Shown piece by piece: positions 4,970 to 58,683 of a DNA stretch of 64,000 nt. The stretch is from NCBI GenBank assembly GCA_963821725.1, contig CAWGFA010000012.1:64229-128228 (forward strand), written 5' to 3'. The DNA is from an uncultured Acidimicrobiia bacterium (lineage in GTDB: Bacteria > Actinomycetota > Acidimicrobiia > Acidimicrobiales > JACDCH01). Made by a program: the position numbers and the translations under genes. The stretch's first letter is position 1. Each line of letters opens with the position of its first letter. The notes under the pieces are model-generated. The model searched no databases, was not told where the DNA came from, and worked only from the letters and a program-made list of their open reading frames with translations.

Positions 4970-5010
4970 CGAATGTTGGGGGGGCAGCACGGCGACCCGG
5001 AGTTCGGAAG
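4970..5010 (+). repeat. REP-like hairpin element family R, degenerate copy a
   Basis: CGAATGTTGGGGGGGGCAGCACGGCGACCCGGAG keeps both conserved flanks (CGAATGTTGG and CGACCCGGAG), but the left stem arm is replaced by a G run. It starts 9 nt after the dnaE2 stop at 4960. Confidence 0.5.
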
Positions 5011-16519: not shown

Positions 16520-17044
16520 GCTATCCGCCTCCCGGCGACGTGGAATCCGCCGCACGCGCCCCACAAGCCCGATCGAGCGGCCCGGGCGGCGCGCTGCCGC
16601 GCCGTCGATCTCGACACGGTGCGCGGTGTTGGGCGCGATCGCAAGCGGGCCGGCGAACCCGTCCGTGCACCATCGCCAGGTCGACGAACAACCCGTCGCT
16701 CGCGGTACACGTAGGCGAGCAGCCGGCCGTAGACGTCGCGCGACTCGCGGTCGCGCTCGAGCCGCACGGCTCGTGCCCGGTGGGATCAACTCAGCAAGAC
16801 GGGCCGACGCCTCTGGCCCGAAGCACTCCACCGGGTGCCGGGTTTGTGGGTCTCGGGGGTGTCGATGCCGATGAGGCGCACGTGTTCTTCGCGAGTCGCC
16901 GACCTTGGCCACGATGGTGTCGCCGTCGATGACGCGCACGACCGTCGCCCGTCCGTCGGAACCGGCCGCGGCGCTGTGTCCGTCACCGTGGGCGCAACCG
17001 CATGCGAGGAAGGCGGCGACAACAGCGGCGAACCATCGGTACAT
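16520..17044 (-). pseudogene. thermonuclease (SNase-like) family lipoprotein, at least three frame disruptions; 3' end unresolved
   Basis: It starts MYRWFAAVVAAFLACGC (lipobox). SNase motifs are spread over three frames: VIDGDTIVAKV, EEHVRLIGIDTPE, DVYGRLLAYVY, GLWGAC. As sequenced, the last frame reads straight into the ChbG start with no stop codon. Confidence 0.6.
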
Positions 17045-17193
17045 GAGCGTCGTCCTCTCGTCAGGTGCGGAGGAAGACCGTTCACCGCCGGTCGACGAGC
17101 GTGTCCCGATGGTACGGGAGGGGTGTGACATCGAGCGGGCCCGGCCCGGTCTGCACGCGTGCGGAGGGGAGGGACGGCAGGATCGTCGGGGAA

Positions 17194-17242
17194 CCTCGGG
17201 TCGATCCCGGGGCTGTGACCCCGCAATCGCACCAACATTCCG
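17194..17242 (-). repeat. REP-like hairpin element family R, copy b
   Basis: The minus strand reads CGGAATGTTGGTGCGATTGCGGGGTCACAGCCCCGGGATCGACCCGAGG. It lies in the divergent spacer between the nuclease start and the cupin start (32 nt from ATG 17274). Confidence 0.7.
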
Positions 17243-18856: not shown

Positions 18857-18882
18857 GCTTGGCAGCCTACGGCCGAGGCGTT

Positions 18883-18930
18883 CTTCGGGTCGATTGCGGG
18901 GCCATGACCCCACGATCGCACCAACATTCG
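18883..18930 (-). repeat. REP-like hairpin element family R, copy c
   Basis: The minus strand reads CGAATGTTGGTGCGATCGTGGGGTCATGGCCCCGCAATCGACCCGAAG. It begins 10 nt after the YeaQ-family stop (18941) and ends 27 nt before the thiolase start. Confidence 0.75.
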
Positions 18931-30374: not shown

Positions 30375-31791
30375 TCACGAACCGGCAGCGAGCAGCTCCG
30401 CGTACGAATCCTCGAGGCTCGGTGCGTAGCAGTTCGGGATCGTCGACGGCGGCGACGTCGATGTTCAGTCCCATGTCGAGCGACCCGCCTGACGACAGCA
30501 AGGTCAGGTTGAACGCGGTGCCGCCGGTCGGACCCATCGGATAGTTGGCGACGATCTTGGCGCCGGCGACGTAGAGGTCGAACGGCGCACCTCGCACGTT
30601 GGATGTTGCGAAGTCGACGGTTTCGATCTGCTGGCGCGCGAACCGCACGAGGACCGAGGTCGGCAAGCACGTTCGCGACACCCGCGAACGATTCCGGCCA
30701 TCGCCAGCGATCGTTCCGTCTTCGTCACGTTCAACCGGTCGCGCACTGGCGGCGAAGCGTTCGACCGGGTCGGTGATGCCGACGGGCACGAGGACTCTTG
30801 CCGGTGTGAAGGCGTTGCCACCCATCGAGCGGTCCGTACGAGTGGACACCGGCATCGAGATCCGAAGCTCATCGACGTCGATTCCATTGGCTCGGTGATA
30901 CGCGCCCGCAGCCCCCGCCGCGCCGGCAACGAACAGGTCGTTGATGCTTCCTCCCAGTGCCTTCGCGGCGCGCTTCGTGTCGTCGAGCGGTACGCGCAGG
31001 ACTTCGAACCGTCTGCGCAACGAGCGTTCTGTCCACAGCGGCGAATGAGCCCGATCGGTGACTGCGATTTGACGCGCCAGCTGACTGCATGGATGCAGCC
31101 ACCTCGATGCCGACGGCCGGGATGCGCTCTGGATGGCGTAGCAAGTCGGCGGTTCCGACAGCAGCACGGCGTCCGAGCCCCACTCCGCGGCGGATGTTGT
31201 GCGCCGCAGTCTCGGTCGCGGTGGCGACGAAGCTCGCCGGCGGCTCCGATTCGTCGCTGCGGCTTCGGTCGGCGCCGGCGGATCGTCGGGCGTGCCCTCC
31301 CGGCTGAAGTCGATGAACTCGGCGGACATGCGCACGCCGCCTTCGCCGTCGGTCACGGTGTGATGGATCTTCTGGAACAACGCCGCGCCGCCACTGCCGA
31401 CACCGTCGATGATCGTGAACTCCCACAACGGCCGGGTGCGGTCGAGAGGCGCCGCTTCGAGCACGACCGCGAGGTCGAAGAGCGTCCGCTCGGTACGGGG
31501 CTCGGGCAGCGCGATGTGGCGGATGTGGTAGTCGAGGTCGAAGTTGGGATCGTCCTGCCACTCCGGTGGCGCGAGCCGGCCCAGCGCCGGGACCACACGC
31601 TGGCGCAGTCGAGGCACGACGCTCACGGCATGCGCCAGGCGGGCCCGCAGGCGGGCTGGGTCCGGTGGCTGGTCGAGCAGCGTGACGTTCGCGAACGACG
31701 AGGCGAGATATGGGTCCTTCTCGAGGTTCCACATCAGGGCCTCGACGTCGCTCATCCGGTGCTCGCCGAGCACCGGCCTGGTGGCGGCCAT
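30375..31791 (-). pseudogene. wax ester synthase/diacylglycerol acyltransferase (WS/DGAT) family protein, at least five frame disruptions
   Basis: ORF 30238..31791(-) reads ...EHRMSDVEALMWNLEKDP...LFQKIHHTVTDGEGG, which contains the HHxxxDG catalytic motif. The later parts alternate between frames (RLNVTKTERSLAMAGIV, ...VDFATSNVRGAPFDLYVAGAK...). The corrected C-terminus is SLEDSYAELLAAGS*. Confidence 0.8.
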
Positions 31792-35121: not shown

Positions 35122-36385
35122 TCAGGCCTCTGCTTGCCGGAGTGACTCGGCCTCGGCCCACGAGAACACGCCTTTGGCCATCAGCGACGGCTCGGCCTCC
35201 CGTCGCCGGGCGAACACCTCCGCTCGTGCCCGGTGCGCAGCGGCCGAGTCCGGCGCCGCCATGGCCGCGTATTCCCGCGAGATGGCCCGCGAGGCGGAGA
35301 TCGGCGTCCTCGCCGGACGCCGAGAGCTCGACGGCTCGGCGGGCGAGCACGTCGGCGCCGCCGGCGAGGCCCGCGAGCTCGGCCGCCAGCGCCTGCTCGC
35401 GGGCAGGCTTCAGATGAGCGGGATTGCCGTCGTACCAGCCGCCGTAGAGGCGCCAGAGGTTGCGCACGATGAACTCCGGGTCGTCGTAGATCGGACGAAG
35501 GTAGGGCCTCGTGAGCAGCTCTGGGGGCGCGGCCACCGTGTGGATGATGTCTTCGAGCCGCGCACCCTCGTTCATGAGAGCGAGGGTCTGGGCCGCGAGC
35601 GACTCGAGCAGTGTGGCCGTGTCGACCAGCACGGACCGGATCCGATCCGCTCCGGAGATCGGCAACCCGTGGCCGGGCAGCAACAGCTCCGGCGCCGGTT
35701 CGAGCGCCGCCATCTCCCGCAGCGCGGCCGCCCAGTCCTCGGCATACCGCTGCACCTTCTGGGGATTGCCGGCGTTGGGCGTGCACCAGATGATGAGGTC
35801 GCCGGTGCACAGGGTTCGCCGTTCGGGGACCCACACCCACGTGTGGTCGTCTGTCTCGCCGCGGGCGTGGTGCAGCTCGGCGGCGACGCCACCGAGGTCG
35901 AGGTCGAGGCGGTCGGTGTACGTCACATCCGGCCGGCGGTACTCGACCGGCCATTGCAGCCCGGGCGCGCGGAACTGCCGTTGGTTGATCACGGCGTTGT
36001 AGCCGGCGGTCTTCACGTACCGGTCGAAGCGGGGCTCGATCCCGGCATGGCCGATCACGCGCATGGGCCCTTCGGCTTCGAAGGCCGCGGTACCGAAGAC
36101 GTGGTCGATGTGGCCGTGCGTGTACACCGCGGTTGACGCTCGATCCGTGGACCAGGACCGCACCGCCTCGTGCACGGCCGCTGCGACGAGTGCGCTGCCC
36201 GTGTCGACGAGGCACAAGCCGTCCGGGGTCGAGACCGCGGTGACGTTGGCGAACGACTCCACGAACGCCACGCCGTCGCCGACCTCCTCGAGCCGGTTCG
36301 AGGGCCGGAACGGATGGTGGTCCGTGATCTCCTCGGTGCCGTCGAGGATGCGAGAGGAGAGCTCGAGCAGGGACACGTCAGCCAT
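35122..36385 (-). pseudogene. MBL-fold metallo-hydrolase, alkyl/aryl-sulfatase-like, one frame disruption near 35265
   Basis: Start MADVSLLELSS.... Zinc motif YTHGHIDH. ...NAGNPQKVQRYAEDW... and a dimerisation-domain-like region follow. The corrected tail is EYAAMAAPDSAAAHRARAEVFARRREAEPSLMAKGVFSWAEAESLRQAEA*. Confidence 0.7.
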
Positions 36386-36402
36386 GCCGAACCTTAGGTG
36401 CG

Positions 36403-36600
36403 GCACCAGCGCCAGCGGCCGGGGAGCGACGCACGAGCGGCGCAGCGGCTGCGTGGCCGGGGCCGGGGTGCGCCAGCCAGCGACGGAGCGCCGCGGGACG
36501 GCGCAACGGCCTGCGTGGCCGGGGCCGGGGTTTGCGCCATGCAAGCGACGGAGCGCCAGCGGACGGAGCGGCGCAACGGCCTGCGTGGCCGGGGAACGCC
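36403..36600. repeat. tandem-repeat family T array, about three degenerate 55-65 bp units filling a divergent promoter spacer
   Basis: Units start at about 36426, 36480 and 36545. Each begins GCGACGSAGCG and ends CTGCGTGGCCGGGG(CCGGGG/AACGCC). The array occupies nearly the whole spacer between the sulfatase-like start (36385, minus) and the TetR start (36616, plus). Confidence 0.75.
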
Positions 36601-36615
36601 AATAGCATTGTGGGG

Positions 36616-37215
36616 ATGACGGCAATCGACGGGCGGACGGCCCGGGCGGTGCGGACCCGGGAAGCGATCGTCGATGCTTGCATCGCCCTCGTGGACGAGG
36701 GTGACGTTCGTCCGACTGCATTGAAAGTGGCCGAGCGCGCCGGTGTCTCCGTGCGCTCGGTGTTCCAGCACTTCGACGATCTCGAAGGCCTGTACGCGGC
36801 GATCGCCAGTCGCCTCGTCGACCGGCTCGGTGGGGTGAAGGTCGTGGTCGACGCGGAGCTGCCGATCGGCGCGCGCATCACGGAGATGGTCCGCAGCCGC
36901 TCACGCGCCCTGGAGATCCTCACGCCGGTCCGGCAGGCGGCGGCGGTGCATGCCCCGTTCTCGCCGGAGATTCGGGCGCGACTCCAGGCCGGCCACGCCA
37001 TGCTGCGGGCTGAGCTCGCGCGGGTGTTCGCGGACGAGTTGGAAAAGCGTGACGAGCCGGCGCGCACGAGGTTGCTCGACGCGCTCGACACGGTGCTGTC
37101 GTGGCCGAGCTGGGACAACCTCCGCACGCTGAACGGGCGGTCCAAGGAGGAGGCGCAGGCGACCGTCGAGCAGATGGTCTCCGCCATGCTCCTGCCTGCA
37201 CACTTCGAGTCGTAG
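36616..37215 (+). CDS. TetR/AcrR family transcriptional regulator
   Basis: MTAIDGRTARAVRTREAIVDACIALVDEGDVRPTALKVAERAGVSVRSVFQHF is a canonical TetR HTH. Intact. Confidence 0.85.
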   Translation: MTAIDGRTARAVRTREAIVDACIALVDEGDVRPTALKVAERAGVSVRSVFQHFDDLEGLYAAIASRLVDRLGGVKVVVDAELPIGARITEMVRSRSRALEILTPVRQAAAVHAPFSPEIRARLQAGHAMLRAELARVFADELEKRDEPARTRLLDALDTVLSWPSWDNLRTLNGRSKEEAQATVEQMVSAMLLPAHFES

Positions 37216-37269
37216 CGTCATCGCCTTCGGCGGCGCCTCGGCCATCCCGAAGCACCTAACCTCCCGCGC

Positions 37270-38161
37270 GTGGCAGACGTCGATGTGGATGGTGCCCGAG
37301 ACTTCGTCTGGCGCAACGCGCCGGTTGATCGATCGGCTTCTGTTCGAACACCGTTTCGGGCGCGGCGCCGCGGAAGACGTCGTGCACGCACTACGTCCGT
37401 TCCAGAACGAGGACGGAGGATTCGGCAACGCGCTCGAACCAGATCTGCGCGGTCCGGTCAGTCAGCCGATCCACGTCGACATGGCCTTCCGCTACCTGCA
37501 CGAGGTCGGGCTCGCGCCCCCCGAGCTCGTGGCTCGTGCGTGCACGTACCTGGGCTCGGTTTCGGGCGACGAGGGTGGTGTACCGGCGATCCTGCCGACG
37601 GTCGTGCGCTATCCCCGTGCCGAGCACTGGCAGCCGCACGCATGGATCGCTGATGCGCTCAACCCGACCGCGATGCTCGCCGGCCTCCTGCACGCGATGC
37701 ACTTTCCGCACTCGTGGCTCGATCGAGCCGACGCCTTCTGCTGGAAGAGACTCGGTGAGACCAAGCCAGGTGACGGCCCCGAGCTGGCCGCGGTCTACTG
37801 CTTCTTGAACAACGCACCCGACCGCCGGCGCGCCGTGCAGGCCGCCGAAGACGTCGCGGACGCCATTCCGACTGCGGGCTTCTTCGCACTCGATCCCGAG
37901 GATCACACGGGCGAGTACGCACTCACGCCGTTGCACCTCGCACCGACGCGCGATGCAATGGCGGCCGCACTGTTCGCACCCGAGCTGCTCGATGCTCATC
38001 TCGATCATCTCGTCTCGCAACAGCAAGAAGACGGTGGCTGGCCGGTGACATGGGAGCCGCCGAGTGAGTGTGCGCTGCTCGAATGGCGCGGCCGGCAGAC
38101 AGTCGACGCGCTGATGACGCTGCAGAACTACGAAAGGCTGCCCGGTGTCCGCAACCACTGA
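37270..38161 (+). pseudogene. prenyltransferase/squalene-oxidase-repeat (alpha/alpha-toroid) protein, one frame disruption near 37320
   Basis: VADVDVDGARDFVWRNA (frame of ORF 37270) joins RLIDRLLFEH... (ORF 37283..38161). Two QW-like motifs are present: FQNEDGGFG and QQQEDGGWP. Confidence 0.55.
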
Positions 38162-39590
38162 TGTCGGCGACGCGCTTCGGGTGCTGCTCGACCCGGCGCT
38201 CGAGCCCATCGTCGAAGTCGTCCTCGTGCGCGACGGCGACGCGCTCGAGGCGCACGCTGCCGATGGATCTGTGCGGTTCGATCGGGACGGCGCGGTGCTG
38301 TCGGAGCAAGGCCGGAACCCTCTGGCCGACCAGGCGACCGATCGGTTCGCCGGGCTGGCGAACGAGTGTGCCTCCTTGCAGCCCGACCGCAGCGCGAACA
38401 GCTATCCGTTCGCGTACGAGCAGGCGGCGCAGTTGTTCGACCATCCGTGTGCGCCGGATCTGTGCGTGATCCACACCGCCGCGCACAACTGGGAGGACCA
38501 GGGCGGCCATCGCGGCGAGCACGGGTCGATCGACGTGGTGCAGGCACGGGCGCCCTTCATCATCGCCGGCGCCGGCGTCCGGTCGGCGGGCATGGTGGCG
38601 CGAGCGGCGAAGCTCGTCGACGTGGTTCCGACCCTTCTGCGGCTGATGGGCGCTGCGCCCCCGTTGCAGACCGACGGATCCGTGCTCGACGACGTGCTGC
38701 TGGCCGACGGCAGCCCGCCCGAGCACGTCATCGGGTTCCTGTGGGACGGCTGCAACCCGAACGTGCTGTACGACGCGGTCGCCAACGGTGACGCGCCGAA
38801 CGTCGGACGTCTGATGGCGATGGGCACGACGTACGAGCACGGTGCGATGGCATCGCTGCCGACGGTCACCCTCGCCAACCACACCTCTGTGCTCACCGGC
38901 TTGCACCCGGGTCACCACGGGATCCTGCACAACGCCTGGTGGGACAGCAACGATCTCCGCCAGGTCATCACCAACTCACCCGCGACGTGGCACGAGGCGT
39001 CGAGCTGGCTGTTTCCCGGCGTCGAGACGATGCATGACGCGGTGCACCGCACGTGGCCCGACGCGTGCACGGTGTCCATCAACGAGCCGACAGATGCGGG
39101 CGCCGACTTCTCGACGTTCGACTTCGTGCGCCGGGGCGTGGCGCTCGAACGACCGCCGGCGCCGGACGAGTTGCCGTACGCCGACCAACGGTTCGTGCGC
39201 CCGGTCAAGGAGTACCGGTGGTCGAGCCGGGTCGACCACACGACCGTGCAGCAGTTCAAGGGCGTGTGGTCGGGTCACTACCTGGGCTCGGATTGGGCGC
39301 GCCCCAAGTTCACGTGGTGCAACTTCTCGTTGACGGACGCCGCGTTCCACGAAGGTGGGCCCCATTCGGACATCGCCCTCGCGTCCATACGTGACAGCGA
39401 CGCGCGGCTGGGTCAGATCCTCGACGTCGTCGAGCAGTCGGGTGCGTGGGATCGGACCGCGTTCTTCCTCGTCGCCGACCACGGCATGGAGGAAACGGAC
39501 CCGGCGGTCACCGGCGACTGGAGCCCCGCGCTGACCGACGCCGGCATCTCCCACCGCGACGAAGCCTTCGGGTTCATCTACCTCACGTAG
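38145..39590 (+). CDS. alkaline-phosphatase superfamily protein (nucleotide pyrophosphatase/phosphodiesterase-like)
   Basis: Intact 481-aa ORF that overlaps the upstream gene by 17 nt. The NPP-type nucleophile region is LPTVTLANHTSVLTGLHPGHHGI and the distal metal site is FFLVADHGM. The first 170 aa resemble the C-terminal part of an NPP domain (HTAAHNWEDQGGHRGEHG). Confidence 0.7.
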   Translation: MSATTDVGDALRVLLDPALEPIVEVVLVRDGDALEAHAADGSVRFDRDGAVLSEQGRNPLADQATDRFAGLANECASLQPDRSANSYPFAYEQAAQLFDHPCAPDLCVIHTAAHNWEDQGGHRGEHGSIDVVQARAPFIIAGAGVRSAGMVARAAKLVDVVPTLLRLMGAAPPLQTDGSVLDDVLLADGSPPEHVIGFLWDGCNPNVLYDAVANGDAPNVGRLMAMGTTYEHGAMASLPTVTLANHTSVLTGLHPGHHGILHNAWWDSNDLRQVITNSPATWHEASSWLFPGVETMHDAVHRTWPDACTVSINEPTDAGADFSTFDFVRRGVALERPPAPDELPYADQRFVRPVKEYRWSSRVDHTTVQQFKGVWSGHYLGSDWARPKFTWCNFSLTDAAFHEGGPHSDIALASIRDSDARLGQILDVVEQSGAWDRTAFFLVADHGMEETDPAVTGDWSPALTDAGISHRDEAFGFIYLT

Positions 39591-39598
39591 GTCGGTTG

Positions 39599-39646
39599 CG
39601 AATGTTGGTGCGCCGTGGTCGCTATGGCGACCACGGCGACCCGGAG
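39599..39646 (+). repeat. REP-like hairpin element family R, copy d (swapped stem)
   Basis: CGAATGTTGGTG-CGCCGTGGTCGC-tatg-GCGACCACGGCG-ACCCGGAG. The flanks match the family, but the perfect 12-bp stem has a different sequence. It starts 8 nt after the stop at 39590. Confidence 0.75.
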
Positions 39647-40472
39647 ATCACGGGGGGAGTGAGGATCAACTCGTCCGGGAGGTCGAACGGCGCCGGCTGT
39701 GAGCCGTCGATGTCGGTGACGCCGTAGTCGCGAGCGAGCTCGCCGACGCGATAGCCGCCACCGGATCGGCGCGCGACCTCCGGGTCCGATAGGAGGGCGG
39801 CGACGCAGCGACCCGTGTACTCGGGTGACTCGAGTCCTGTCGCGCCCGCCATCTGCACCCGCTCGGTCGTGGTGAAGCCCGGGAACACGGCGACGACGTT
39901 CACGCCGTGAGGACGCAGCTCGTGGGCGAGAGTCGCGGTGGCGCGCACGATCGCCGACTTCGCCGTGTCGTACATGACCGCGCCCAGGTAGCGGCCGCGG
40001 TCCCACGCCGCGATGTTCACGATGAGGCCGCGGGAGCCGAGAAGCATCGGGATCGCGGCGTGCGACGTCGCCAGCGTGGGCTGCAGGCCGGCGACGAACA
40101 TGCCGTTCCACTTCGCGACGAAGTCCTGCTCCCAGAACGGCGCGGAGAACCCTGCGTGGTCGTACACCTCGTAGCCGCCCCACGCGTTGTTCACGAGCAC
40201 GTCGAGGTTGCCGTCGCAGTCGTCGGCGACGCGCTGCATCAACGCCTCGATGTCGGCGTAGTCGGTGTGGTCGCAACGGACCGCGACGCCGCGGCCGCCC
40301 CGCTCGGTGACGAGTGCCGCGGTCTCGTCCACGGTGCCGGGTGCGTCGTCGAGCGGTTTCGTCCCACCCGTGGTGCGACCGGTCACGTACACGACTGCGC
40401 CCATGTCGCCGAGGGACAACGCGATGCCACGACCGATGCCACGACTCGCTCCGGTGACGATCGCGACAGTCA
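39622..40472 (-). CDS. SDR family oxidoreductase
   Basis: Real part of ORF 39622..40794(-), GTG start at 40472. VTVAIVTGASRGIGRGIA...NNAWGG...YDTAKSA.... The last 8 codons lie inside repeat copy d, so the exact 3' end is uncertain. Confidence 0.8.
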
Positions 40473-40501
40473 CGGCTGCACCGTACGAATCCGAGTGCGA
40501 G

Positions 40502-40619
40502 CGACGGAGCGCCAGCGGAGGAGCGGCCATGACCGGCCTGCGTGGCCGGGGAACGCCGACAGCACGACGGAGCGCCAGCGGAGGAGCGGCCATGACCGGC
40601 CTGCGTGGCCGGGGAACGC
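40502..40619. repeat. tandem-repeat family T, two perfect 55-bp copies with a 63-bp period
   Basis: CGACGGAGCGCCAGCGGAGGAGCGGCCATGACCGGCCTGCGTGGCCGGGGAACGC occurs at 40502-40556 and again at 40565-40619. On the minus strand the array begins 11 nt after the acyl-CoA dehydrogenase stop (40631) and ends 30 nt before the SDR start (40472). Confidence 0.85.
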
Positions 40620-40630
40620 AGGTGGCATCG

Positions 40631-41738
40631 TCATTGCTTCGGCAGGCCCAAGATGCGCTCGCCGATGATGTTCTTCTGCACCTGAGTCGTTCCTCCCGCG
40701 ATGCGTCCGCCGGGCGCGGCCGTCGCACCGAGCGACGCGTCGTTGGCCAGCATGGCGTCTGCTCCGCCGATCGACGTGCGCAGCATCGCGGCATCGAACA
40801 GCAACTCGGTCACGCCCAGCTTCAGCAACGAGCCCGCGACCGACGCCATCGGTCCCTGTCGTTGCGCGAGCGCGAGATAGGCGCGCCCGCGTGCGACGAG
40901 GTGCGCGAGCTCGTCGCGCTCGACAGGGCCGACGCCACGGTCGGAGCTGTCGGCCATCGACGCCATCCCGTCGAGGCGGCGCTGCAGCGAGATGGCCGAC
41001 GCGCCGATGTGGCCGCGCTCGTTCGTGAGCGTCGCCATCCCGACGTTCCAACCGTCGTTCTCGGCACCCAGGAGACAGGTCGCAGGTACGCGCACAGTGT
41101 CGAGGAAGACCTCGTCGAACTCGGATCCGCCCGTCATCTGCCGCAGCGGCCGCACGTCGACACCCGGCGAGTGCATGTCGACCAGGAAGAACGAGATGCC
41201 GCGGTGCGGTTTGGCCGTCGGGTCGGTCCGGGCCATGCAGATGCCCCAGTCGCTGATCCGGCCGTTGGAGCACCAGACCTTCTGCCCGGTCAGGACGATA
41301 CTCGTCCCCGTCACGGTCCGCTCGTGTGGTGAGGGAGGCGAGGTCGGATCCCGCGCCCGGCTCGCTGAACAACTGGCACCAAACGCGCTCGCCGGTGATG
41401 ATCGGTCGCAGGTGCTCTCGCTGCTGCTCCTCGGTGCCGAACAGGAGCAACGATCCGCCCGCGAGGACGACGCCGACCATGTTGATGAAGGGCGGGACAC
41501 CGGCGAGCGCGCACTGCTCGATCCAGGCCGCCGTGTGCTCGGGCGTGAGGCCGCGCCCGCCGTGTTCCTCGGGCCAGTGGATGCCGGCGAAGCCGGCGTC
41601 GAAGAGTCGTCGTTGCCACGCGGTTCCTTCGTCGCGCAGATCGGGCGGCAGGATCGCGCCGTAGTCCCGCGGCGCGTCCGACTTGTTCGCCGCCAGCCAC
41701 GCCGCCGCCTCGTCCCGGAACGCCTCGACGTCGATCAC
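40631..41738 (-). pseudogene. acyl-CoA dehydrogenase family protein, one frame disruption near 41300
   Basis: ORF 40470..41738(-) gives MIDVEAFRDEAAAWL...WCQLFSEPGAGSDLASLTTRADRDGDEY. ORF 40631..41500(-) continues with ...IVLTGQKVWCSNG...GGTTQVQKNIIGERILGLPKQ. Confidence 0.85.
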
Positions 41739-41761
41739 CTGCGCTCGTCCCTCCTGGCGAA

Positions 41762-41809
41762 CTCCGGGTCGATTGTGGGGCTATAACCCCACAATCGAAC
41801 CAACATTCG
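41762..41809 (-). repeat. REP-like hairpin element family R, copy e (best copy)
   Basis: The minus strand reads CGAATGTTGGT-TCGATTGTGGGG-ttatag-CCCCACAATCGA-CCCGGAG. It begins 10 nt after the SDR stop (41820) and ends 24 nt before the acyl-CoA dehydrogenase start (41738). Confidence 0.8.
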
Positions 41810-41819
41810 GAAGCGAGGA

Positions 41820-42713
41820 TCAGGACAGGGCCTTGAGGGCGAGGCCCAGTTCCTCGTTGAGGTTGGTGGGCACCGAGTAGCCGGACTCCTCGCGGATCTC
41901 GTCGAAGTGATCGCGGACCGACTCGGGCGACAGTTCGTGATCGACGAAGCCCGGCGTCACGCCGACGAAGACGCGGGCGACGCGTCCGCCGCCGACGGAG
42001 TAGACCTCGCCGCTGACCGGACAGCTGTCGTGGGCGAGGTACGTGACGAGCGGCGTCACGAACTCGGGCGCGAGCTTGTCGGCGATCGGACCGAGCAGCT
42101 CCTCGGTCATGCGTGTCTTCGCCACCGGCGCGATCGCGTTGGCCTTGATGTTGCTCTTCGCACCCTCGACCGCGAGCACGCGGGTGAGGCCGACGAGTCC
42201 CATCTTGGCCGCGCCGTAGTTGCCCTGGCCGAAGTTGCCGAACACGCCGGCGCCCGACGACGTGTTCACGATGCGCCCGTACCCCTGCTCACGCATGATC
42301 GACCATGCCGGTTGGGTCACGTAGAACGCCCCCCGCAGGTGCACGTCGAGCACCGGGTTGAGCTGGTCGGGCGTCATGTTCTTGAACGACGCGTCGCGCA
42401 GGATGCCGGCGTTGTTGATGATGATGTCGACTCGGCCGAACGCGTCGGTCGCGGTCTTGACGATGTTGGCGCCGCCTTCGGGTGTGGCGACCGAGTCGTA
42501 GTTGGGCACCGCCTCGCCGCCCGCTGCCTTGATCTCGTCGACCACCTTCTGTGCGGCCGTCTCCGACCCGCCGGTGCCGTCGACCGAGCCGCCGAGGTCG
42601 TTCACCACGACCAGTGCGCCGCGCTTCGCGAGCTCGAGCGCATGTGACCGTCCCAATCCGCCTCCGGCACCGGTGATGATCGCAACCTTGCCGTCGAATC
42701 CCAGATCTGCCAT
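41820..42713 (-). CDS. SDR family oxidoreductase (NDLGG-type, like the dehydrogenase domain of multifunctional hydroxyacyl-CoA dehydrogenases)
   Basis: Intact 297-aa ORF. GKVAIITGAGGGLGRSHAL...VVVNDLGG...NNAGILRD...YGAAKMG.... Confidence 0.85.
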   Translation of the reverse strand: MADLGFDGKVAIITGAGGGLGRSHALELAKRGALVVVNDLGGSVDGTGGSETAAQKVVDEIKAAGGEAVPNYDSVATPEGGANIVKTATDAFGRVDIIINNAGILRDASFKNMTPDQLNPVLDVHLRGAFYVTQPAWSIMREQGYGRIVNTSSGAGVFGNFGQGNYGAAKMGLVGLTRVLAVEGAKSNIKANAIAPVAKTRMTEELLGPIADKLAPEFVTPLVTYLAHDSCPVSGEVYSVGGGRVARVFVGVTPGFVDHELSPESVRDHFDEIREESGYSVPTNLNEELGLALKALS

Positions 42714-42726
42714 GGCGGCAAGCTAA

Positions 42727-44337
42727 TCAGGAGATGCCGAGCGCCTCCAATGCGCGCGCCCGAACGCCCTTGTAGTCGACCTTGCCGTTCGGGGCGCGCT
42801 GGATCGACTCGACGACGACCACACGCTTCGGGGCCTTGTAGGCGGCGAGCTTGCCCTTCACGTGCGCGATCACGTCGCCTTCGTCCACCTCGGCGTCGGG
42901 GAACGGCTCCACGACGGCCGTGATCGCCTCGCCGAACTTGTCGTCCGGCACGCCGACGGCGACGGCGTCGCGAACCGACGGATGCAGCTTGAGCACCTCT
43001 TCGACTTCCTCGGGGAAGACCTTCTCGCCGCCGGTGTTGATGCACACCGACCCGCGCCCGAGCAGCGTGATCGAGCCGTCCGCTTCGATCGTCGCGTAGT
43101 CGCCCGGTACCGAGTAGCGCTTGCCGTCGATCGTGAGGAACGTCGCCGCGCTCTTGTCGGGGTCCTTGTAGTAGCCGACCGGCTGGCGGCCGGTGACGGC
43201 GACGCGGCCGACCTCGCCCGACCCGGCGACGACGTCGCGGCCGTCGTCGGTGATCACCCGGGCGTTGGGACCGAGCGCGAACTTGGCCGTCTTCGTCTCG
43301 CCGCCCGCCGTCGTGAGTGATGTGCCCATGCCAAGCGCTTCGGACGACGAGAACCCGTCGCTCAGGAGCATGCCACCGTGATGACGGAGCAGACCCTGCT
43401 TGGTCTCCTCGCTCCACATGACACCTGACGACACGATCAGGATGAGGCTCGACAGGTCCCACTTGCCGGGCTGATCGTCGAGCGCGCGCAGCACCGGCTT
43501 CGCGAACGCGTCACCGACCCACGCGATCGCGTTGACGCCTTCACGTTCGATCGTGTCGAGCAGTTCGACGGCATCGAACGATCGGCCCTCGAGCGTGACG
43601 ACACATCCGCCCGACGTCATCGCCGACAACGCGGTGAACATCCCCGTGCCGTGCATCAACGGTGCCGCGGGGACGATCACCCGCCCTGGCGCGACGCACA
43701 GCTCGCGGACCTTGTCGAGGTTCGCCTCGACGCCGAAGTCGACGCCGCTCGGCGGGTTCAGGTAGACGAACAGGTCGTCCAGCTGCCACATGACGCCCTT
43801 CGGCATGCCCGTGGTACCGCCGGTGTAGAGGAGCAGAAGATCTTCGCCGCCGCGTCCGTGCGCCGGCACCGTCCGTTCGGCGGCTGAGGTTGCCGCGTCC
43901 TCGTAGGGGATGGCCCACTCGGGACACGGGCCGCTCCCGTCGTCGACCCACAGCCAGGTTCGGACGCTCGGGACGCGATCGCGGACCCGCTCGCAGCGCT
44001 CGACGAAGCAGCCGTGGAACACGACCGCGACTGCGTCAGCGTTGTCCCACAGATAGACGAGCTCGTCGTCGGCGTACCGGTAGTTCGTGTTCACCGGAGC
44101 CAGGCCGGCCTTGAAGACGGCGAACATCGACTCCATGTACTCAGGGCAGTTGTAGAGGTAGTGCGCGACCTTGTCCTGGCGTGTCGCGCCGGCGTCGAGC
44201 AGGACCTTGGCGACGCCGTCGGCCCGGCGGTCCATCTCCCCCCACGTGACGCGACGGTTGCCCTGCACCTGCGCAGGTGCGTCCGGGAGGGTCTCGGCGA
44301 CCACCTCCCAGACGTCCGCGAAGTTCCAGCCGGACAT
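42727..44337 (-). CDS. acyl-CoA synthetase (AMP-binding, ANL superfamily)
   Basis: Start MSGWNFADVWE (ATG 44337, AAGGGGAA upstream). AMP-binding motif LLYTGGTTGMPKGV, later ...GDYATIEADGSITLLGRGS... and a C-terminal PNGKVDYK. Intact. Confidence 0.85.
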   Translation of the reverse strand: MSGWNFADVWEVVAETLPDAPAQVQGNRRVTWGEMDRRADGVAKVLLDAGATRQDKVAHYLYNCPEYMESMFAVFKAGLAPVNTNYRYADDELVYLWDNADAVAVVFHGCFVERCERVRDRVPSVRTWLWVDDGSGPCPEWAIPYEDAATSAAERTVPAHGRGGEDLLLLYTGGTTGMPKGVMWQLDDLFVYLNPPSGVDFGVEANLDKVRELCVAPGRVIVPAAPLMHGTGMFTALSAMTSGGCVVTLEGRSFDAVELLDTIEREGVNAIAWVGDAFAKPVLRALDDQPGKWDLSSLILIVSSGVMWSEETKQGLLRHHGGMLLSDGFSSSEALGMGTSLTTAGGETKTAKFALGPNARVITDDGRDVVAGSGEVGRVAVTGRQPVGYYKDPDKSAATFLTIDGKRYSVPGDYATIEADGSITLLGRGSVCINTGGEKVFPEEVEEVLKLHPSVRDAVAVGVPDDKFGEAITAVVEPFPDAEVDEGDVIAHVKGKLAAYKAPKRVVVVESIQRAPNGKVDYKGVRARALEALGIS

Positions 44338-44416
44338 CTGTTCCCCTTTGTGCTGCGATCTGGTGGCCGCGGATCGTACCGGTCGCTGTGACACGATCGG
44401 GCCTTCCGGGGCTTTC

Positions 44417-44941
44417 ATGGACGTGGAGGTCGTATCGGTGGGGACTGCGCTTCCGGAGCGGACGGACTTCGACGACTTCGTCGCGGACGTCGAGCCCCGG
44501 TTGCGACGGGCCCTCGTCGCCGCCTACGGGCCCGAGGCGGGACGGGAAGCGGTCGCTGATGCACTGGCGTGGGCCTGGCAGAACTGGGACCGGCTACGCG
44601 GAATGGACAACCCGTCCGGCTACCTGTGGCGGGTCGGCCAGAGCGCCGTTCGCAGCGCCGCTCGCCGCTCGCGTCGCGAGCTCACCGCAGTCGTCGAGGT
44701 CGAGCTTCAGCCGCTCGACGCCCATCGCGAGCCGCGGGTCGAGCCCGCGCTCGACGGCGCGCTCGCCGAGCTCTCGCCGCAGCAACGAGCGGCCGTCGTC
44801 CTCGTGCACGGCTACGGCTACTCCCTGAGCGAAGCCGCCGCGGTCCTGTCCTGCTCCGTCTCGACGGTGCGCAACCACGTGCAACGCGCGCTGCGCCGTC
44901 TGCATGCAGCCCTGGAGGTGTCCGAGGTGTCCGATGAGTGA
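44417..44941 (+). CDS. ECF-type RNA polymerase sigma-70 family factor
   Basis: MDVEVVSVG.... Region 2 reads ...ADALAWAWQNWDRLRGMDNPSGYLWRVG. Region 4 reads LSPQQRAAVVLVHGYGYSLSEAAAVLSCSVSTVRNHVQRALRRL. Confidence 0.85.
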   Translation: MDVEVVSVGTALPERTDFDDFVADVEPRLRRALVAAYGPEAGREAVADALAWAWQNWDRLRGMDNPSGYLWRVGQSAVRSAARRSRRELTAVVEVELQPLDAHREPRVEPALDGALAELSPQQRAAVVLVHGYGYSLSEAAAVLSCSVSTVRNHVQRALRRLHAALEVSEVSDE

Positions 44942-46371
44942 GCGTCCGCCGCGTCCTGAGGTCAGTGCGTTCCTGCACGATCGAGCGACCTCACTCGATC
45001 GGGAAGCGGCGCCGGTGACGGCGGACGAAGCAGCGCGCCGGACGATCGTCGACGCCGGCAAACCAGGTCGGCAGTGGCCGGCAGCGTTGCGTCCCGCTCA
45101 GATGCGGACGAGTCCTCGGTCGGTGCTCGCCGCGGCCGCGGTCGTCGCGCTCGTCGTCGGTGCGCTCGGCGGCTTCGCGGTCGGCCGGTCCAGCGCGCCG
45201 AAGCACTCGACGGTCGCAACGGCCGCTGCGAACGCACCGAAGCCAGAGTCGGTCGACGGGTCGACGACGCTTCCGGGGCTCGTCGCCAATGGCTCCACCG
45301 GCATGGCCATCGCTTCTGGTGTCAACCAAGGGTCACCGATGACGCGGCTGTTCGATCGCACGACGTCGGACGGAATCGCGATTCACGCCTTCAAGCAGGA
45401 CCAGAGCGCGGCCGTCGTTCCCTCCCGAGGTTGCGTGCGCGGTCACCAACGTGCCGGACGGTGTCACGACGACGGTCACGGCGCCTGCAGGAACAAATCA
45501 GCCGTCGTGCCCCGCGAACGCCTGGTCCCCGCCGCCCGAGTGCTACGGCAACAGCCTCGTCGTCGAGGCTGGGAATCAAGGTGCCGTCGGGCAGACGGGG
45601 TCGCCCGGATATCCGCTGCACGACGTCGCGGCGGTGACGTCGCCGCTCAGGTTCGGCGACGCAGAAGGCAGTCCCGCGTCCGGATGGATCGTGAACACGA
45701 GCGACCAGGTGGCCAAGGTCGAGGCACGGTGGACCGATGGTTTCGTCGATTCCATGGCGCCGACCAACGGCTGGGCTGTCGTCGCGCACAACGGAGCGAA
45801 CTTCAACGCGACGATCGTCGTGTTCAGCAACACGGGCGCAGCGCTGAAGACGTTCACGACAGGCGGCGGGACCAGCTACCAACAGCCGCCTGCGGAGTGC
45901 ATGCCACCGCCGCCGGCGCCCCCGCCGCTGCCGCCGGCCGGCGCTGAACAACCGGACGACCCGTCTGCGGCGCGCCAAGCGGTCACCAATGCGTACCAGA
46001 CCGTGTTCACGCACGGCAGCGATCCGACGACGAACGCCGCGCTCATCGAGGATCCCGACAGCCTCAAGCAAGCGCAGGAGACGGTTCGTTCCAACTTCCC
46101 ACAGGCGCTCGACACGGTGACCGTGACGGTCGGCGAAATGGTGTTCACGTCGAAGACGGAGGCCGCGCTCTACTTCGAGCTCAACTACCAAGGTGGTGCG
46201 CTGTTCGGTCAGCAGATCGGCCACGCGAAGCTGATCGACGGTACGTGGAAGATCGCGCACGACACGATGTGCATGGTGCTCGGCTGGGGTGGCGGCCAGT
46301 GCGACGGTGGGTCGGGGTCGAGCCCTGGCGCCCCGCCCGCGACACCCTTGACGACGATCCCCAACAACTAG
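44934..46371 (+). pseudogene. putative anti-sigma factor / single-pass membrane protein with a large extracytoplasmic domain, one frame disruption near 45425
   Basis: The ATG overlaps the sigma-factor stop (ATGAGTGA). The TM helix is VLAAAAVVALVVGALGGFAV. The extracytoplasmic part continues in ORF 45451..46371. The shift falls in TCCCGAG, the same context as one of the Mca indels. Confidence 0.5.
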
Positions 46372-56081: not shown

Positions 56082-56916
56082 CGCTGTCGGTGCTCGGGGC
56101 GAGCCGGGCGAGCGCAGCTGGAACTCGAAGGACGCCATCGTCTACGCCCTGGGCGTCGGGTGCGGTGTGGACGATCTGCCGTTCACGACCGAGAACACGC
56201 AAGGAGTGGAGCAGCAGGTGCTGCCGACGATGGGCGTCGTGCTGCCGGTCGGTGGTCGGGGCGCCTGGGACGAGCTCGGCGACGTCAACTGGACGATGCT
56301 CGTGCACGGCGAGCAGGCGATCGAGCTCCACCAACCGATCCCGGTCGAGGGAACGTGCCGGTCGACGACGACCGTGACCGGCATCTACGACAAGGGATCC
56401 GGCGCGGTCGTCGTGACCGAGACCGAATCGGTCGACGCGAAGTCCGGCGATCCGCTGTTCACGACCCGTTCGGCGGCGTTCATCCGCGGTGAAGGTGGTT
56501 GGGGAGGCGATCGCGGCCCGAGCGCCGAGCGACCGTCCCACGGCACCCGAGCGCGAGCCCGATCACGTCGTGAAGTACCAGACCGGCCGCGACCAAGCGT
56601 TGATCTACCGGCTGTCCGGTGATCGCAATCCGCTTGCACTCCGATCCGGCGTTCGCACAGCGCCGCCGGATTCGACACACCGATCCTGCACGGCCTGTGC
56701 ACATACGGCTTCACGGGCCGCGCGCTGCTCCACACGTTGTGCGGATCCGATCCGTCGAGGTTCAAGTCGATGGAGGGTCGCTTCAGCTCGCCCGTGTTCC
56801 CGGGTGACGAGCTGACGATCTTGATGTGGTTGACCGGCGACGGCGAGGCGATCTTCCAGACGCGCCGCCCGGGCGACGTCGTCGTGCTCGACAACGGGTT
56901 GTGCCGGTTCACGTGA
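56065..56916 (+). pseudogene. MaoC family (R)-specific enoyl-CoA hydratase (double hot-dog), at least three frame disruptions
   Basis: ORF 56065..56622 holds the N-terminal hot-dog half. The hydratase-2 motif [13 protein letters not shown](H)SDP is split over two frames. The corrected tail is ...[16 protein letters not shown]...[16 protein letters not shown].... Confidence 0.75.
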
Positions 56917-56941
56917 CGGGCTGAACCGCCATCGGTTTCGC

Positions 56942-57606
56942 TCAGAACAGGCGCAACGTGTTCGACTCCGAGGCCGCGCAAGCTCGTCGTAGTCGACCTC
57001 GACCCAGGTGATGCCACGGCTCTCGGCGAGCACGCGCGCCTGCGGTTTCACCACCTGCGCGACGAAGATGCCGCGCACCGGCCGCAACATCGGATCGAGG
57101 TTCATCCGCTCGAGGTAGCGCGTGAGCTGCTCGACGCCGTCGATCTCACCGCGCCGCTTCACCTCGATGGCCACGGCGACACCGTCTTGGTCGCGGCAGA
57201 GCAGGTCGACGGGACCGATGTCGGTCGGATGCTCGCGGCGCACGAGTCGTAGTCCGGCCGCGATCGCGGCGCAGTTCGCGGCCAGCAGCTCCTGCAGGTG
57301 TGCTTCGACGCCGTCCTTCTGCAGACCGGGATCGACTGCCGAGCTCGTAGCTGACGTCCGACATGATCTCGTCGATCGTGATGGTGAGCGTCTCGCCCTT
57401 GCTGTTGGTGACCGATCCACGGTCCCGGCTCTTCGACGAGCCGATTCGGAGCCGACCATCCAGTTGAGCGGCTTGTACGCGCCGCCGTCGGAGTGGATCG
57501 ACAGGCAACCGTCGGCCTTGATCATCAACAGCCGCGTCGCCATCGGCAGATGCGCGGTGAGGCGGCCGTCGTAGTCGACGGCGCACCGCGCGATGACCAG
57601 ACGCAC
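56942..57606 (-). pseudogene. nucS: endonuclease NucS (EndoMS, non-canonical mismatch repair), four frame disruptions (about 57440, 57345, 56990, 56975)
   Basis: [51 protein letters not shown] middle piece sits in another frame ([27 protein letters not shown]). Then comes [18 protein letters not shown]...GPVDLLCRD...[20 protein letters not shown].... The corrected end is [11 protein letters not shown]. Confidence 0.85.
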
Positions 57607-57633
57607 CGGCCGAGACTACGAGCCCCACCTCAG

Positions 57634-57685
57634 CGAATGTTGGTTCGATTGTGGGGCTATCGCCCCACAATCGACCCGAAGTTGG
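57634..57685 (+). repeat. REP-like hairpin element family R, copy f
   Basis: CGAATGTTGGT-TCGATTGTGGGGC-tatc-GCCCCACAATCGA-CCCGAAGTTGG. It lies between the nucS start (57606) and the aldo/keto reductase stop (57698), both on the minus strand. This copy is therefore antisense to the flanking genes. Confidence 0.8.
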
Positions 57686-57697
57686 AGCTGGTCGACG

Positions 57698-58598
57698 TCA
57701 TCTCGGGATCGGAAAGATCACGTCCTCGTCCGCCATGGCGTCGGCCGCTTCCGCGCGCTCGACGGCAGCCATGGGGGCGACCCCTTCGGCGGCCGCGAGC
57801 ACGCGGGGGAGCAGCCCGAGATCTCCCGGCGTGCAGAAGGCATGGACGCCCGGCGTCGACAGTGCGAACGACACGCCACGAGCGATCGCATCGTCGTCCT
57901 GTTGCGGCTCGTACCAGGACGTCGCCCAGCGCTCCGCAGTTGCGGGATCGCCGGCCATCACATCGGCCAGCGGCCGCCGATCGGGCCAGGGCCGGCGAGC
58001 GACGGCCTTGATGACCATGACACCGAGATCACGCTCGGTGCACAGCGCGAGCAGCTCCTCGGCCGCCTCTCGGTACATCGGGTCGGCCCACAGCCGTGGG
58101 TAGATCGGGAACATCACCGTGTCGAGGTCGTAGCGGCGAAGTGCCTCGAGGAACGTCGTCGGCACCGAGAGGTCGTGCCCGGTGATGCCGGCGAACCGAC
58201 ACCTGCCTTCGTCGCGGAGCCGGAGGATGCGCTCGATCCCCGGGGCTCGGTTGTCGAGCTCTTCGAGCGTGGTGACCCCGTGGGCCTGGTACAGGTCGAG
58301 GACGTCACAGCCGAGCAGCCGGCGGCTCTCGTCGAACTGGTCGACGACACCGTCGGGATTCGAGCGCAACGTCTTCGCGGCGACGAACAGCCGGTTACGC
58401 ACGGCGGGGATCGCCGGACCGACTGCTTTCTGTGCGTCTCCGTACTGCGGCGCGATGTCGAGGTGGTTGACCCCGCGCTCCATCGCGCAGCGCGAGGCCC
58501 CGCGCACCATCGTCTTCGGACGACGCCCAGAAGGCTGCGCCGCCGAGGATGGCGACGCTGCTCTCGTGCCCCGTCCGACCCAGTCGCCGACGCTCCAT
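57698..58598 (-). pseudogene. aldo/keto reductase, one frame disruption near 58530
   Basis: MERRRLGRTGHESSVAILGGAAF (ORF 58395..58673 frame, GGAGGGGG upstream of ATG 58598) joins ...AMERGVNHLDIAPQYGDAQ... in ORF 57698..58666. Confidence 0.75.
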
Positions 58599-58636
58599 CG
58601 CTGCCCCCTCCGACCGACCGCGCCCAGCTCGTTGCT

Positions 58637-58683
58637 TGCGTGCAGAACGGACCCTATAGGGCCCACCCCGCACGCCGAAACGG
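58637..58683 (-). repeat. nested hairpin element family H, copy 3 (between the ABC1-kinase stop and the aldo/keto reductase start)
   Basis: The minus strand reads CCGTTTC-GGCGTGC-ggggt-GGGCCC-tata-GGGTCC-gttct-GCACGCA. The leader and outer stem match copy 2, but the inner hairpin is different. Confidence 0.6.

Follow-up and report, generated by a model that had tools for sequence, protein, structure and literature searches.

Family R is a lineage-specific dispersed repeat of a soil clade of Acidimicrobiales (Actinomycetota). Six of its copies, designated a to f, lie in a 64,000-nucleotide stretch of contig CAWGFA010000012.1 (assembly GCA_963821725.1) from an uncultured Acidimicrobiia bacterium; this whole stretch is referred to below as the window, and copy e (41758-41809, minus strand) is the focal copy. 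The repeat is a nested hairpin whose paired positions co-vary and which is asymmetric between the two strands. It is biased in position and orientation towards the stop codons of upstream genes, and it has persisted at orthologous sites while the sequence class of its stem was replaced.

Copies in the window and in related genomes

Public genomes, with one genome per species, were scanned for the pattern CGAATGTTGG-N25-45-GACCCGRAG, and at least 88 stretches matched. Among the matches listed, at least 53 were exactly 48 nt long and hairpin-folding (window copies included), and all of these were from metagenome-assembled genomes (MAGs) of Acidimicrobiia/Acidimicrobiales; the listed matches in other phyla had odd lengths, lacked a hairpin and appear chance-like, and none of those listed came from Mycobacterium. 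The first-pass annotation had proposed a repeat family from the six window copies, and both the pattern scan and a covariance model revealed at least 50 more in related genomes, among the matches listed, distributed over three or four Acidimicrobiales MAG species, chiefly MFD04850.bin.2.5, SMAG_U5409 and SMAG_U6783, with MFD05841 in addition. MFD04850.bin.2.5 is the nearest species representative, with 88-90% DNA identity to the window. The window is itself of Acidimicrobiales origin, and its proteins match mycothiol conjugate amidase and ABC1 proteins assigned to Acidimicrobiales in their source records. The covariance model returned 56 sense matches in 51 loci from the pattern scan, and practically none in 295 kb of metagenome contigs that are thiolase-linked and more distant; loci of relatives used in the comparisons are labelled L005 to L148. 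With six copies per 64-kb window, and one or two per ~40 kb of MFD04850 DNA fetched regardless of the element, the number of copies per genome is estimated at ~10^2. A phage origin was considered and rejected, as only three odd-length, chance-like matches were present in 2.9 million viral contigs.

Within the window, direct reading and an unfiltered run of the covariance model built from relatives returned all six of the copies originally described and no others (E = 2e-20 to 3e-6), and the 23-nt left half of the consensus matched four times at up to three mismatches, with 0 expected from 100 shuffles. The element had been delimited at 48 nt; four further 3' bases, usually TTCG or TTGG, are conserved though they lie outside the search pattern, and the unit is 52 nt. 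Copies d (39599-39650, plus strand, 74 bits) and e (73 bits) are of full length, the former with a stem of class 1 (GCGCCGUGGUCGC; the classes are given below) and the latter with one of class 2. Class 2 stems are also found in copies f (57634-57685, plus strand, 71 bits), c (18879-18930, minus strand, 63 bits, with AACG in place of TTCG at its 3' end) and b (17190-17241, minus strand, 53 bits). Copy a (4970-5006, plus strand, 28.5 bits, E = 2.7e-6) is shortened and not vaguely degenerate, as described earlier: its inner hairpin is mostly deleted (13 nt versus 28) and retains the right-arm remnant CACGGCG of class 1, and both outer arms are intact. The next-best match of the covariance model (31191-31236, plus strand, 16 bits, E = 0.019) lies within a WS/DGAT wax-ester synthase gene and is most likely due to chance.

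A nested and covarying hairpin

The 52-nt unit has conserved arms CGAAUGUUGG (positions 1-10) and CCGRAGUUCG (positions 43-52), whose pairs are, in order, C-G, G-C, A-U, A-U, U·G, a G·A mismatch, U·G or U-A, U·G, G-C and G-C. Positions 11-12 and 41-42 constitute a 2x2 internal loop, inside which are a variable, GC-rich inner stem of 12 bp (positions 13-24 with 29-40) and a tetraloop at positions 25-28, usually YAUR. In copy e, on the minus strand throughout, the 5' outer arm, invariant in the family, is located at 41800-41809, the left arm of the inner stem (CGAUUGUGGGGU) at 41786-41797, the tetraloop at 41782-41785, the right arm at 41770-41781 and the 3' outer arm (CCGGAGUUCG) at 41758-41767; the two outer arms pair in the minimum free energy (MFE) fold, for which U·G wobbles are needed. 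The sense RNA of this copy folds at -31.8 kcal/mol (z = -7.3) and the antisense at -26.0 kcal/mol; across the window copies, folding energies range from -21 to -32 kcal/mol and z-scores reach -7.

Over 52 distinct copies, standard pairs make up 92.9% of pair cells, compensatory changes occur at nine of the 12 inner pairs, and double-change cells number 196 versus 78 in shuffles. None of 500 shuffles reached the observed covariation, and the paired fraction drops to 30-52% in slid registers. Of 59 copies, 52 showed the inner stem in their MFE fold and 45 showed the outer stem. The inner stems fall into at least three discrete sequence classes, in addition to rarer ones: class 1 reads CGCCGUGGNCSC, class 2 CNAUUGYGGGGY and class 3 GGAAACGGGYGC, and these classes co-vary almost perfectly. 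The commonest class 1 row, CGAATGTTGGTGCGCCGTGGCCCCTATAGGGGCCACGGCGACCCGGAGTTCG, serves as the class 1 consensus. That the outer arms truly pair is indicated by rare variants in which pairing is kept, namely copy b, where a first pair G1-C52 replaces C1-G52 as a compensatory change, and the L089 copy, the arms of which are fully Watson-Crick.

Positions 49-50, which follow GACCCGRAG, are dimorphic, with ~80% TT and 17% AA in both stem classes (AA for example at window positions 18881-18882), and AA abolishes the outermost pairs of the outer arms. Since the AACG of copy c aligns with native sequence of relatives, the exact 3' boundary of the element is uncertain. Around 53 copies (window and loci), the 10 nt upstream are C-rich and positions +56 to +59 downstream are G-rich, which may reflect a general C-rich composition after stop codons, read from both strands at convergent sites. 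Insertion of the element into the loop of an older hairpin was considered and rejected, as the 25-nt flanks pair no better than mismatched partners (-15.7 versus -15.5 kcal/mol; equalled or bettered in 61 of 200 shuffles).

It has to be asked whether such an element acts at the DNA level, as a binding or recombination site in which the arms are protein contacts and the stem is a mere spacer. It could, for example, be the target of a nucleoid or topology protein, in the way that bacterial interspersed mosaic elements (BIMEs) are bound by gyrase and IHF, or a recombination site folded from one strand, like attC. The attC sites of integrons, with core sites RYYYAAC ... GTTRRRY, resemble Family R in being folded imperfect palindromes right after an open reading frame (ORF), with conserved ends, a variable middle and strand-specific folding. 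However, GTTGGTK of Family R fails at the sixth base and no RYYYAAC is present at the other end, so the core sites are absent; there is also no integrase or cassette array, and the neighbours are syntenic housekeeping genes of core metabolism. The conservation pattern speaks for a DNA site more generally, as the arms of 10-13 nt are far more conserved than the stem and remain fixed where the stem is interchangeable. The pair G20-C33 is invariant in all 52 distinct copies, though the search pattern left it free, and position 13, likewise free in the pattern, is an invariant C (its partner G40 was fixed by the pattern). The authors who described the TRIT hairpins of mycobacteria, discussed below, also suggested a dedicated sequence-specific factor (PMC3152330). 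On the other hand, a double-stranded site needs neither covariation in the stem nor arm pairing on one strand only, and the tie to gene orientation would not be predicted from it. We regard a DNA site as an unlikely explanation.

Strand polarity of the outer arms

In 50 of 60 copies the RNA of the sense strand has the lower folding energy (-30.4 versus -28.1 kcal/mol for the antisense, p = 2e-7). Because of three near-invariant U·G pairs, and because position 46 is A or G, either of which pairs with U7, the outer stem forms only in the CGAATG orientation. The first-pass annotation had drawn its orientation argument from wobble pairs in the inner stem, where copy b has two U·G pairs and a G·G mismatch and copy c one U·G and one C·A. 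This argument does not extend to the family, in which 14 G·U-type and 9 A·C-type mismatches were counted (p = 0.40), and the orientation signal resides in the outer arms.

A symmetric version of the element, with CGAATGTTGGTGCG on both arms, was found in L148, from a relative with 86% ABC1 protein identity. Its two copies (13020-13072 and 16507-16558) are both located in divergent spacers. The 3' arm of Family R differs from the symmetric arm by three A-to-G changes, by which pairing is kept as U·G wobble on the sense strand and destroyed on the other. One of the symmetric copies lies 33 nt upstream of nucS, near the site of window copy f.

Placement at the ends of genes

Coding strands were called from codon usage in the 150 nt that flank every copy on either side. 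Of 57 calls, 45 (~80%) place the copy behind a region coding on its own strand, and these sense copies lie a median of 10 nt past the stop codon, 39 of the 45 within 1-22 nt. Spacers with the element comprise 23 convergent, 28 tandem and 3 divergent ones, compared with a background of 18%, 66% and 15.5%, respectively, for gene pairs of the same loci (p = 9e-6), so that convergent spacers are over-represented and divergent ones avoided. The enrichment after stop codons that was first noticed in the window thus holds for the family, accompanied by an enrichment in convergent spacers. In tandem spacers, 22 copies are sense (or sense/uncalled) and 6 antisense (p = 0.004), or 14:6 when only sites with both flanks called are counted, and the element abuts the upstream stop even where several hundred bases are available downstream. 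As antisense copies also lie 1-34 nt past the stop of the preceding gene, proximity to a stop appears to be the main rule and sense orientation a preference of ~3:1. The loop TAG ends several ORFs, on either strand. The neighbours are ordinary, mutually unrelated metabolic genes, and no gene family recurs beside the copies.

The orientations of the six window copies (+,-,-,+,-,+) follow the neighbouring genes within 64 kb, and orientation in the window is therefore not set by replichore; in L068 it likewise alternates within a few kb, following the genes. On the 3.3-Mb contig of MFD04850, four copies at 0.7-1.3 Mb are on the plus strand and three at 2.3-2.5 Mb on the minus strand.

GC-rich hairpins at gene ends, with copies c and e near the next start codon, are also what ordinary intrinsic terminators or cis-regulatory leaders would provide if they had become alike by convergence. 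This explanation is contradicted by the sequence data, and we give it hardly any credence: identical arms of 10 nt and 9-13 nt at dozens of unrelated genes cannot converge, the downstream genes are mutually unrelated, and no downstream gene is available for regulation at 23 of 54 classified sites, which lie between convergent genes. As in an intrinsic terminator, a GC-rich stem-loop directly follows the gene; however, it is succeeded by GACCCGRAGUUSG and not by a U-tract, the same sequence recurs at many genes, and no Rfam match was found. Terminator calling in 36000-46000 yielded 3 sites versus 3.3 expected, none of them at copies d and e.

For copies a, c, d and e, the reported spacing of 8-10 nt from the preceding stop codon was reproduced (9, 10, 8 and 10 nt, respectively). 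Copy a lies behind the DnaE2 stop (4958-4960), and 14 nt separate its end from the stop (5021) of a convergent SnoaL-like gene. Copy c follows the YeaQ/Transgly_assoc stop (18941), with the ATG of a thiolase gene (18856) 22-26 nt further on, and copy e follows the stop (41820-41822) of a short-chain dehydrogenase/reductase (SDR) gene, with the GTG (41738) of the next gene 19 nt beyond its end; counted from the 48-nt end, copies c and e leave 26 and 23 nt, respectively, before the next start, gaps as short as first described. Copy d follows a phosphodiesterase stop (39588-39590). Its loop supplies the TAG (39622-39624) that ends a convergent SDR ORF, so that the last ~8 codons of this SDR are copy d sequence; the statement that all copies are intergenic is thus mostly correct, with copy d as the exception. 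Pfam matches for the C-terminal part of DnaE2, Transgly_assoc/YeaQ, phosphodiesterase and SDR bear out the names first given to these neighbours. Copy b sits in a divergent spacer between an SNase-like gene (minus strand, start at 17131 at the latest) and a cupin gene (plus strand, start at 17274). Copy f is antisense to both neighbours, the aldo-keto reductase and then the NucS gene (both on the minus strand), 12 nt after the stop of the former (57698) and 27 nt before the start of the latter (57606).

Several genes next to the copies are irregular. The window dnaE2 (1576-4960, plus strand) is split over two frames: that of ORF 1576-4311 encodes PHP and DNA_pol3_alpha in its first half, and ORF 3077-4960 encodes the remainder (second half of DNA_pol3_alpha, finger, HHH, OB). 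This implies that the frame shifts near 3050-3100, so that the gene is a pseudogene or the assembly has an indel here. At 39622-41738 (minus strand), ~320 nt are shared, in different frames, by the SDR ORF and that of an acyl-CoA dehydrogenase. At 56605-58666 (minus strand), the NucS ORF has 333 aa versus 219 aa in relatives, and the aldo-keto reductase covers its Pfam model only partly. The overlap, the long NucS and the partial reductase are further signs of indels and are consistent with an error-prone, possibly long-read, MAG assembly. Directly after copy c, 7 nt upstream of the thiolase ATG, lies TAGGCT (18864-18869, minus strand), which L089-L097 share at this position and which all relatives have kept, unlike the rest of the YeaQ-thiolase spacer; it looks like the -10 box (TANNNT) of a leaderless or near-leaderless transcript.

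Persistent sites with exchanged stems

The element is present in both genomes at seven of eight orthologous sites compared, the genomes being 76-97% identical. At the site of copy d, the same stem class occurs in the window and in L068. At that of copy e, class 2 in the window corresponds to class 3 in L068, with different junctions. At the site of copy f, place and orientation are equal in the genomes compared, and the perfect class 2 stem of the window corresponds to class 1 in L142 and L143 and to a decayed class 1 in L141, a locus 97.1% identical to the window over 6.6 kb. The site of copy c, with a full class 2 element in the window, holds the right half of a class 3 copy in L089 and remnants in L090 and L093. 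Between L056 and L060 the differences are compensatory pairs, each matching the variant of its own genome; L023 and L071 have the element after the same gene, with class 1 in one and another stem (CGATGTGGGTGC) in the other; L006 and L069 have it in one convergent spacer in opposite orientations; and L005 versus L031 is the sole pair with one side lacking a recognisable element.

The dominant stem class is genome-specific (chi-square p = 4e-7). SMAG_U6783 has 17 copies of class 1 and 1 of class 2, SMAG_U5409 has 16 of class 2 and 3 others, MFD04850.bin.2.5 has mostly class 1 and the window mostly class 2. Since the sites persist and the stem class follows the dominant type of each genome, copies have been replaced or homogenised, that is, they are subject to concerted evolution or to repeated re-insertion at the same places.

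Genome-specific dominant subfamilies are also expected for bursts from master copies, and a possible, if doubtful, explanation of the whole family is a purely selfish, non-autonomous mobile element, similar to miniature inverted-repeat transposable elements (MITEs) or REPINs, without host function and located where insertions are tolerated. Its mobiliser, encoded elsewhere in the genome, would act in trans. It could be an HUH/Y1 nuclease, like the RAYTs (REP-associated tyrosine transposases), with the hairpin in single-stranded form as its substrate, or a transposase of the DDE type to which the inverted arms are the recognition sites. An imperfect terminal inverted repeat is indeed formed by CGAATGTTGG and CCGRAGTTCG, and it is perfect in L148 and nearly perfect in the L089 copy. 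The opposite orientations in the orthologous spacer of L006 and L069 suggest independent insertion, and deletion derivatives exist (copy a, and 24-nt forms in L142 and L143). Copies occur at synteny breaks and beside indels: copy b lies just past the end of synteny with MFD04850, and ~2.7 kb of extra DNA without Pfam matches directly follows the SMAG_U5409 element (L071 981-3675 versus L023 2139-2217), the orthologous MFD04850 spacer being only ~80 nt. Moreover, as G·T pairs stabilise single-stranded DNA hairpins too, the strand asymmetry needs no RNA.

Other observations weigh against a selfish element. No conserved or duplicated bases flank the 52-nt unit, and neither a target-site duplication nor a conserved target sequence was seen in the flanks. 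No parent insertion sequence (IS) or MITE with Family R ends was seen in the window or loci. A tblastn search with approximate queries (IS200 TnpA and E. coli RAYT), a weak test, yielded nothing below E = 0.06 in the window and ~0.8 Mb of loci. The neighbours are ordinary metabolic genes, the element is absent from the viral contigs, orientation follows the upstream gene in ~80% of copies, and seven shared sites out of eight are far above what random insertion of ~10^2 copies would give.

The 24-nt forms mentioned above, CGAAYGTTGG-CG-ACCMGAAGTTCG, lack the hairpin and are orthologous (L142 3860-3883 and L143 40-63), lying between convergent inositol-phosphatase and serpin genes. They were considered as primary empty docking sites, a view that was set aside because slippage between GG repeats in a class 1 copy, with loss of 28 nt, is a simpler and probable origin. 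A few kb beyond the synteny end that adjoins copy b, L140 4769-8072 (MFD04850 contig 3, ~366-369 kb) contains IS21-type genes (IstB, Mu-transposase C-terminal domain) and a fragment of Transposase_20 (IS110 family).

Relation to described repeat families

Repetitive extragenic palindromic (REP) sequences, to which the first-pass annotation had likened Family R as a REP/BIME-type element, are found 3' of coding regions, for the most part in the spacers of unidirectional and convergent ORFs, and at times donate a stop codon (PMC3733652); they comprise several subfamilies per genome and genome-specific populations (PMC6006769). The likeness is borne out for the copies, which are short, high-copy, imperfect intergenic palindromes with several subfamilies and genome-specific populations, and for their placement, as both families favour convergent and same-direction spacers, shun divergent ones, sit 3' of genes and sometimes give the stop codon. 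It does not extend to the hairpin foot, which in REPs has a conserved GT[AG]G or CGTC tetranucleotide (PMC3733652, PMC6006769). The Family R foot is CGAATGTTGG, and the class 1 consensus is without GTAG, a GTGG foot or CGTC at the stem base on either strand. It does not extend to doublets either, since Family R copies are singletons and not arranged as BIMEs or REPINs, the nearest pairs within a locus being ~600 nt or more apart. Family R is thus REP-like and not a REP in the strict sense. With 10-13 conserved nt on both sides of the stem, it resembles the 'double-foot' type of REP (PMC6006769). Actinomycetota or Actinobacteria are not mentioned in the two REP surveys (PMC3733652 and PMC6006769).

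The REPs and REPINs of Proteobacteria (E. coli, Pseudomonas) go with a cognate RAYT (TnpAREP) gene, which REPs usually flank. In the Family R loci, genes bracketed by inverted copies are SDR and acyl-CoA dehydrogenase (window and L068) and DUF559 (L062). The last of these (L062 4040-5103) encodes a 336-aa protein with AbiEi_4 and DUF559, which has a Vsr-like endonuclease fold; the antisense strand of one copy supplies its C-terminal codons, and the layout is REPtron-like. This DUF559/AbiEi gene was considered as a cognate enzyme and rejected, as no homologue recurs beside other copies.

An actinobacterial parallel is TRIT, the 'Tuberculosis Rho-independent terminator', a set of 147 conserved, palindromic hairpins that cluster closely around the stop codons of mycobacteria. 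It has been reported from Mycobacterium alone, and the dedicated factor noted above was proposed to recognise it (Gardner et al. 2011, PMC3152330). By its description, TRIT behaves like Family R in being lineage-restricted, conserved in sequence and structure, palindromic and hence usable in both directions, present in ~10^2 copies and narrowly placed at stop codons without a canonical U-tract. The two differ in that TRIT centres at about -8, overlapping the end of the coding region, whereas Family R centres at about +10, and in that Family R is strand-asymmetric.

The MITEs, such as the Correia elements of Neisseria or the ERIC elements of enterobacteria, share with Family R a small, non-coding unit in many copies with inverted-repeat ends and co-transcription with neighbours, the last of these presumed for Family R. 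Family R is, however, much smaller (52 nt), and the whole element is one hairpin. Candidate identities as an attC site, a CRISPR repeat, a riboswitch or leader, or a tRNA-like element were dismissed, as none fits the sequence or the context. No Rfam 15 family matched at the gathering threshold over the whole window, and near copy e there were only microRNA-like chance matches (E >= 0.16). A literature search on the motif returned only unrelated primers and no description of Family R. The initial impression that it belongs to no described family thus agrees with Rfam 15 and with the literature search.

Possible function and mode of spread

Transcription of the copies, a function at the RNA level and the mechanism of spread are what we infer from the above. 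On balance, we lean towards a REP-like or TRIT-like 3'-end hairpin that would be transcribed with the upstream gene and act as a barrier to exonucleases and, with a factor, to read-through. This is suggested by the bias in position and orientation, the strand-specific stability, the GC hairpins in the same spacer of distant relatives (in L091, a more distant relative, an ordinary GC hairpin occupies the YeaQ-thiolase spacer) and the published parallels. A copy would be transcribed as the tail of the upstream mRNA, and its hairpin of ~-30 kcal/mol would form a 3'-end barrier blocking 3'-to-5' exonucleases; with a helper factor, and not alone, it would stop read-through. The barrier would insulate neighbouring, tightly packed or convergent genes, as for REPs and as proposed for TRIT. 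Uniformity within a genome would be maintained by repeated copy-to-copy replacement. The conserved arms could serve for this in gene conversion or template switching; re-insertion by a trans-acting enzyme is the other possibility.

A number of points weigh against this 3'-end hairpin. It assumes that copies are transcribed and that 3' ends form at them. Purified mycobacterial RNA polymerase failed to terminate at hairpins without a U-tract, with or without NusA or NusG (PMC3993855), and given this need in vitro (PMC3993855) and the lack of a U-tract in Family R, autonomous termination is unlikely. The inner-stem mismatches have no excess of G·U, at 14 versus 9. About a quarter of the copies in tandem context are antisense, copy f included, and two or three copies are in divergent spacers, among them copy b. 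Purifying selection on a selfish element could also account for the placement at stop codons and the avoidance of promoters. As regards the mode of spread, close relatives also differ in the junction bases beyond the element, which is unpredicted by simple gene conversion, and no clean empty site was found in the orthologous spacers of L031, L047, L089-L094, L098 and L140-L143, as every informative spacer held another element, a remnant or unrelated sequence.

An effect on translation termination or ribosome release is also possible, as a ribosome positioned on the stop codon would cover the start of the hairpin; work in E. coli on ribosome stalling at REPs close to stop codons lies behind this idea. 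On a further, improbable reading, the element would go beyond a passive repeat of the REP kind and form a strand-polarised two-part system, in which the conserved outer hairpin would be a fixed docking site by the stop codon and the inner stem-loop an exchangeable module, actively rewritten to the current master sequence of the genome. The rewriting would fall to a dedicated enzyme acting on single-stranded nucleic acid, for instance an HUH nuclease or a reverse transcriptase. Such a system might be coupled to translation termination, since the hairpin begins inside the ribosome footprint at the stop codon.

Implications

Dispersed hairpins of the REP type have been studied almost only in Proteobacteria. 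TRIT is the one actinobacterial analogue found, and it is unexplained; Family R constitutes a second, independent case, from a deep-branching, uncultured actinobacterial class. What sets it apart in this little-studied lineage is the combination of strand-polarised arms, modular stems and replacement at conserved stop-codon sites. The question of what such hairpins do is made testable by the strand asymmetry, the existence of a symmetric relative, the discrete stem classes and the replacement of content between genomes only 3% apart. The covariance model is usable for marking gene ends and strand in Acidimicrobiales MAGs, and, as the repeats coincide with synteny breaks, they may confuse assemblies. 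More broadly, Family R bears on how mRNA 3' ends are defined in high-GC bacteria without U-tract terminators and on how short repeats stay uniform within a genome. If the two-part system were true, it would represent a new kind of homing micro-element or of RNA-end control in Actinomycetota.

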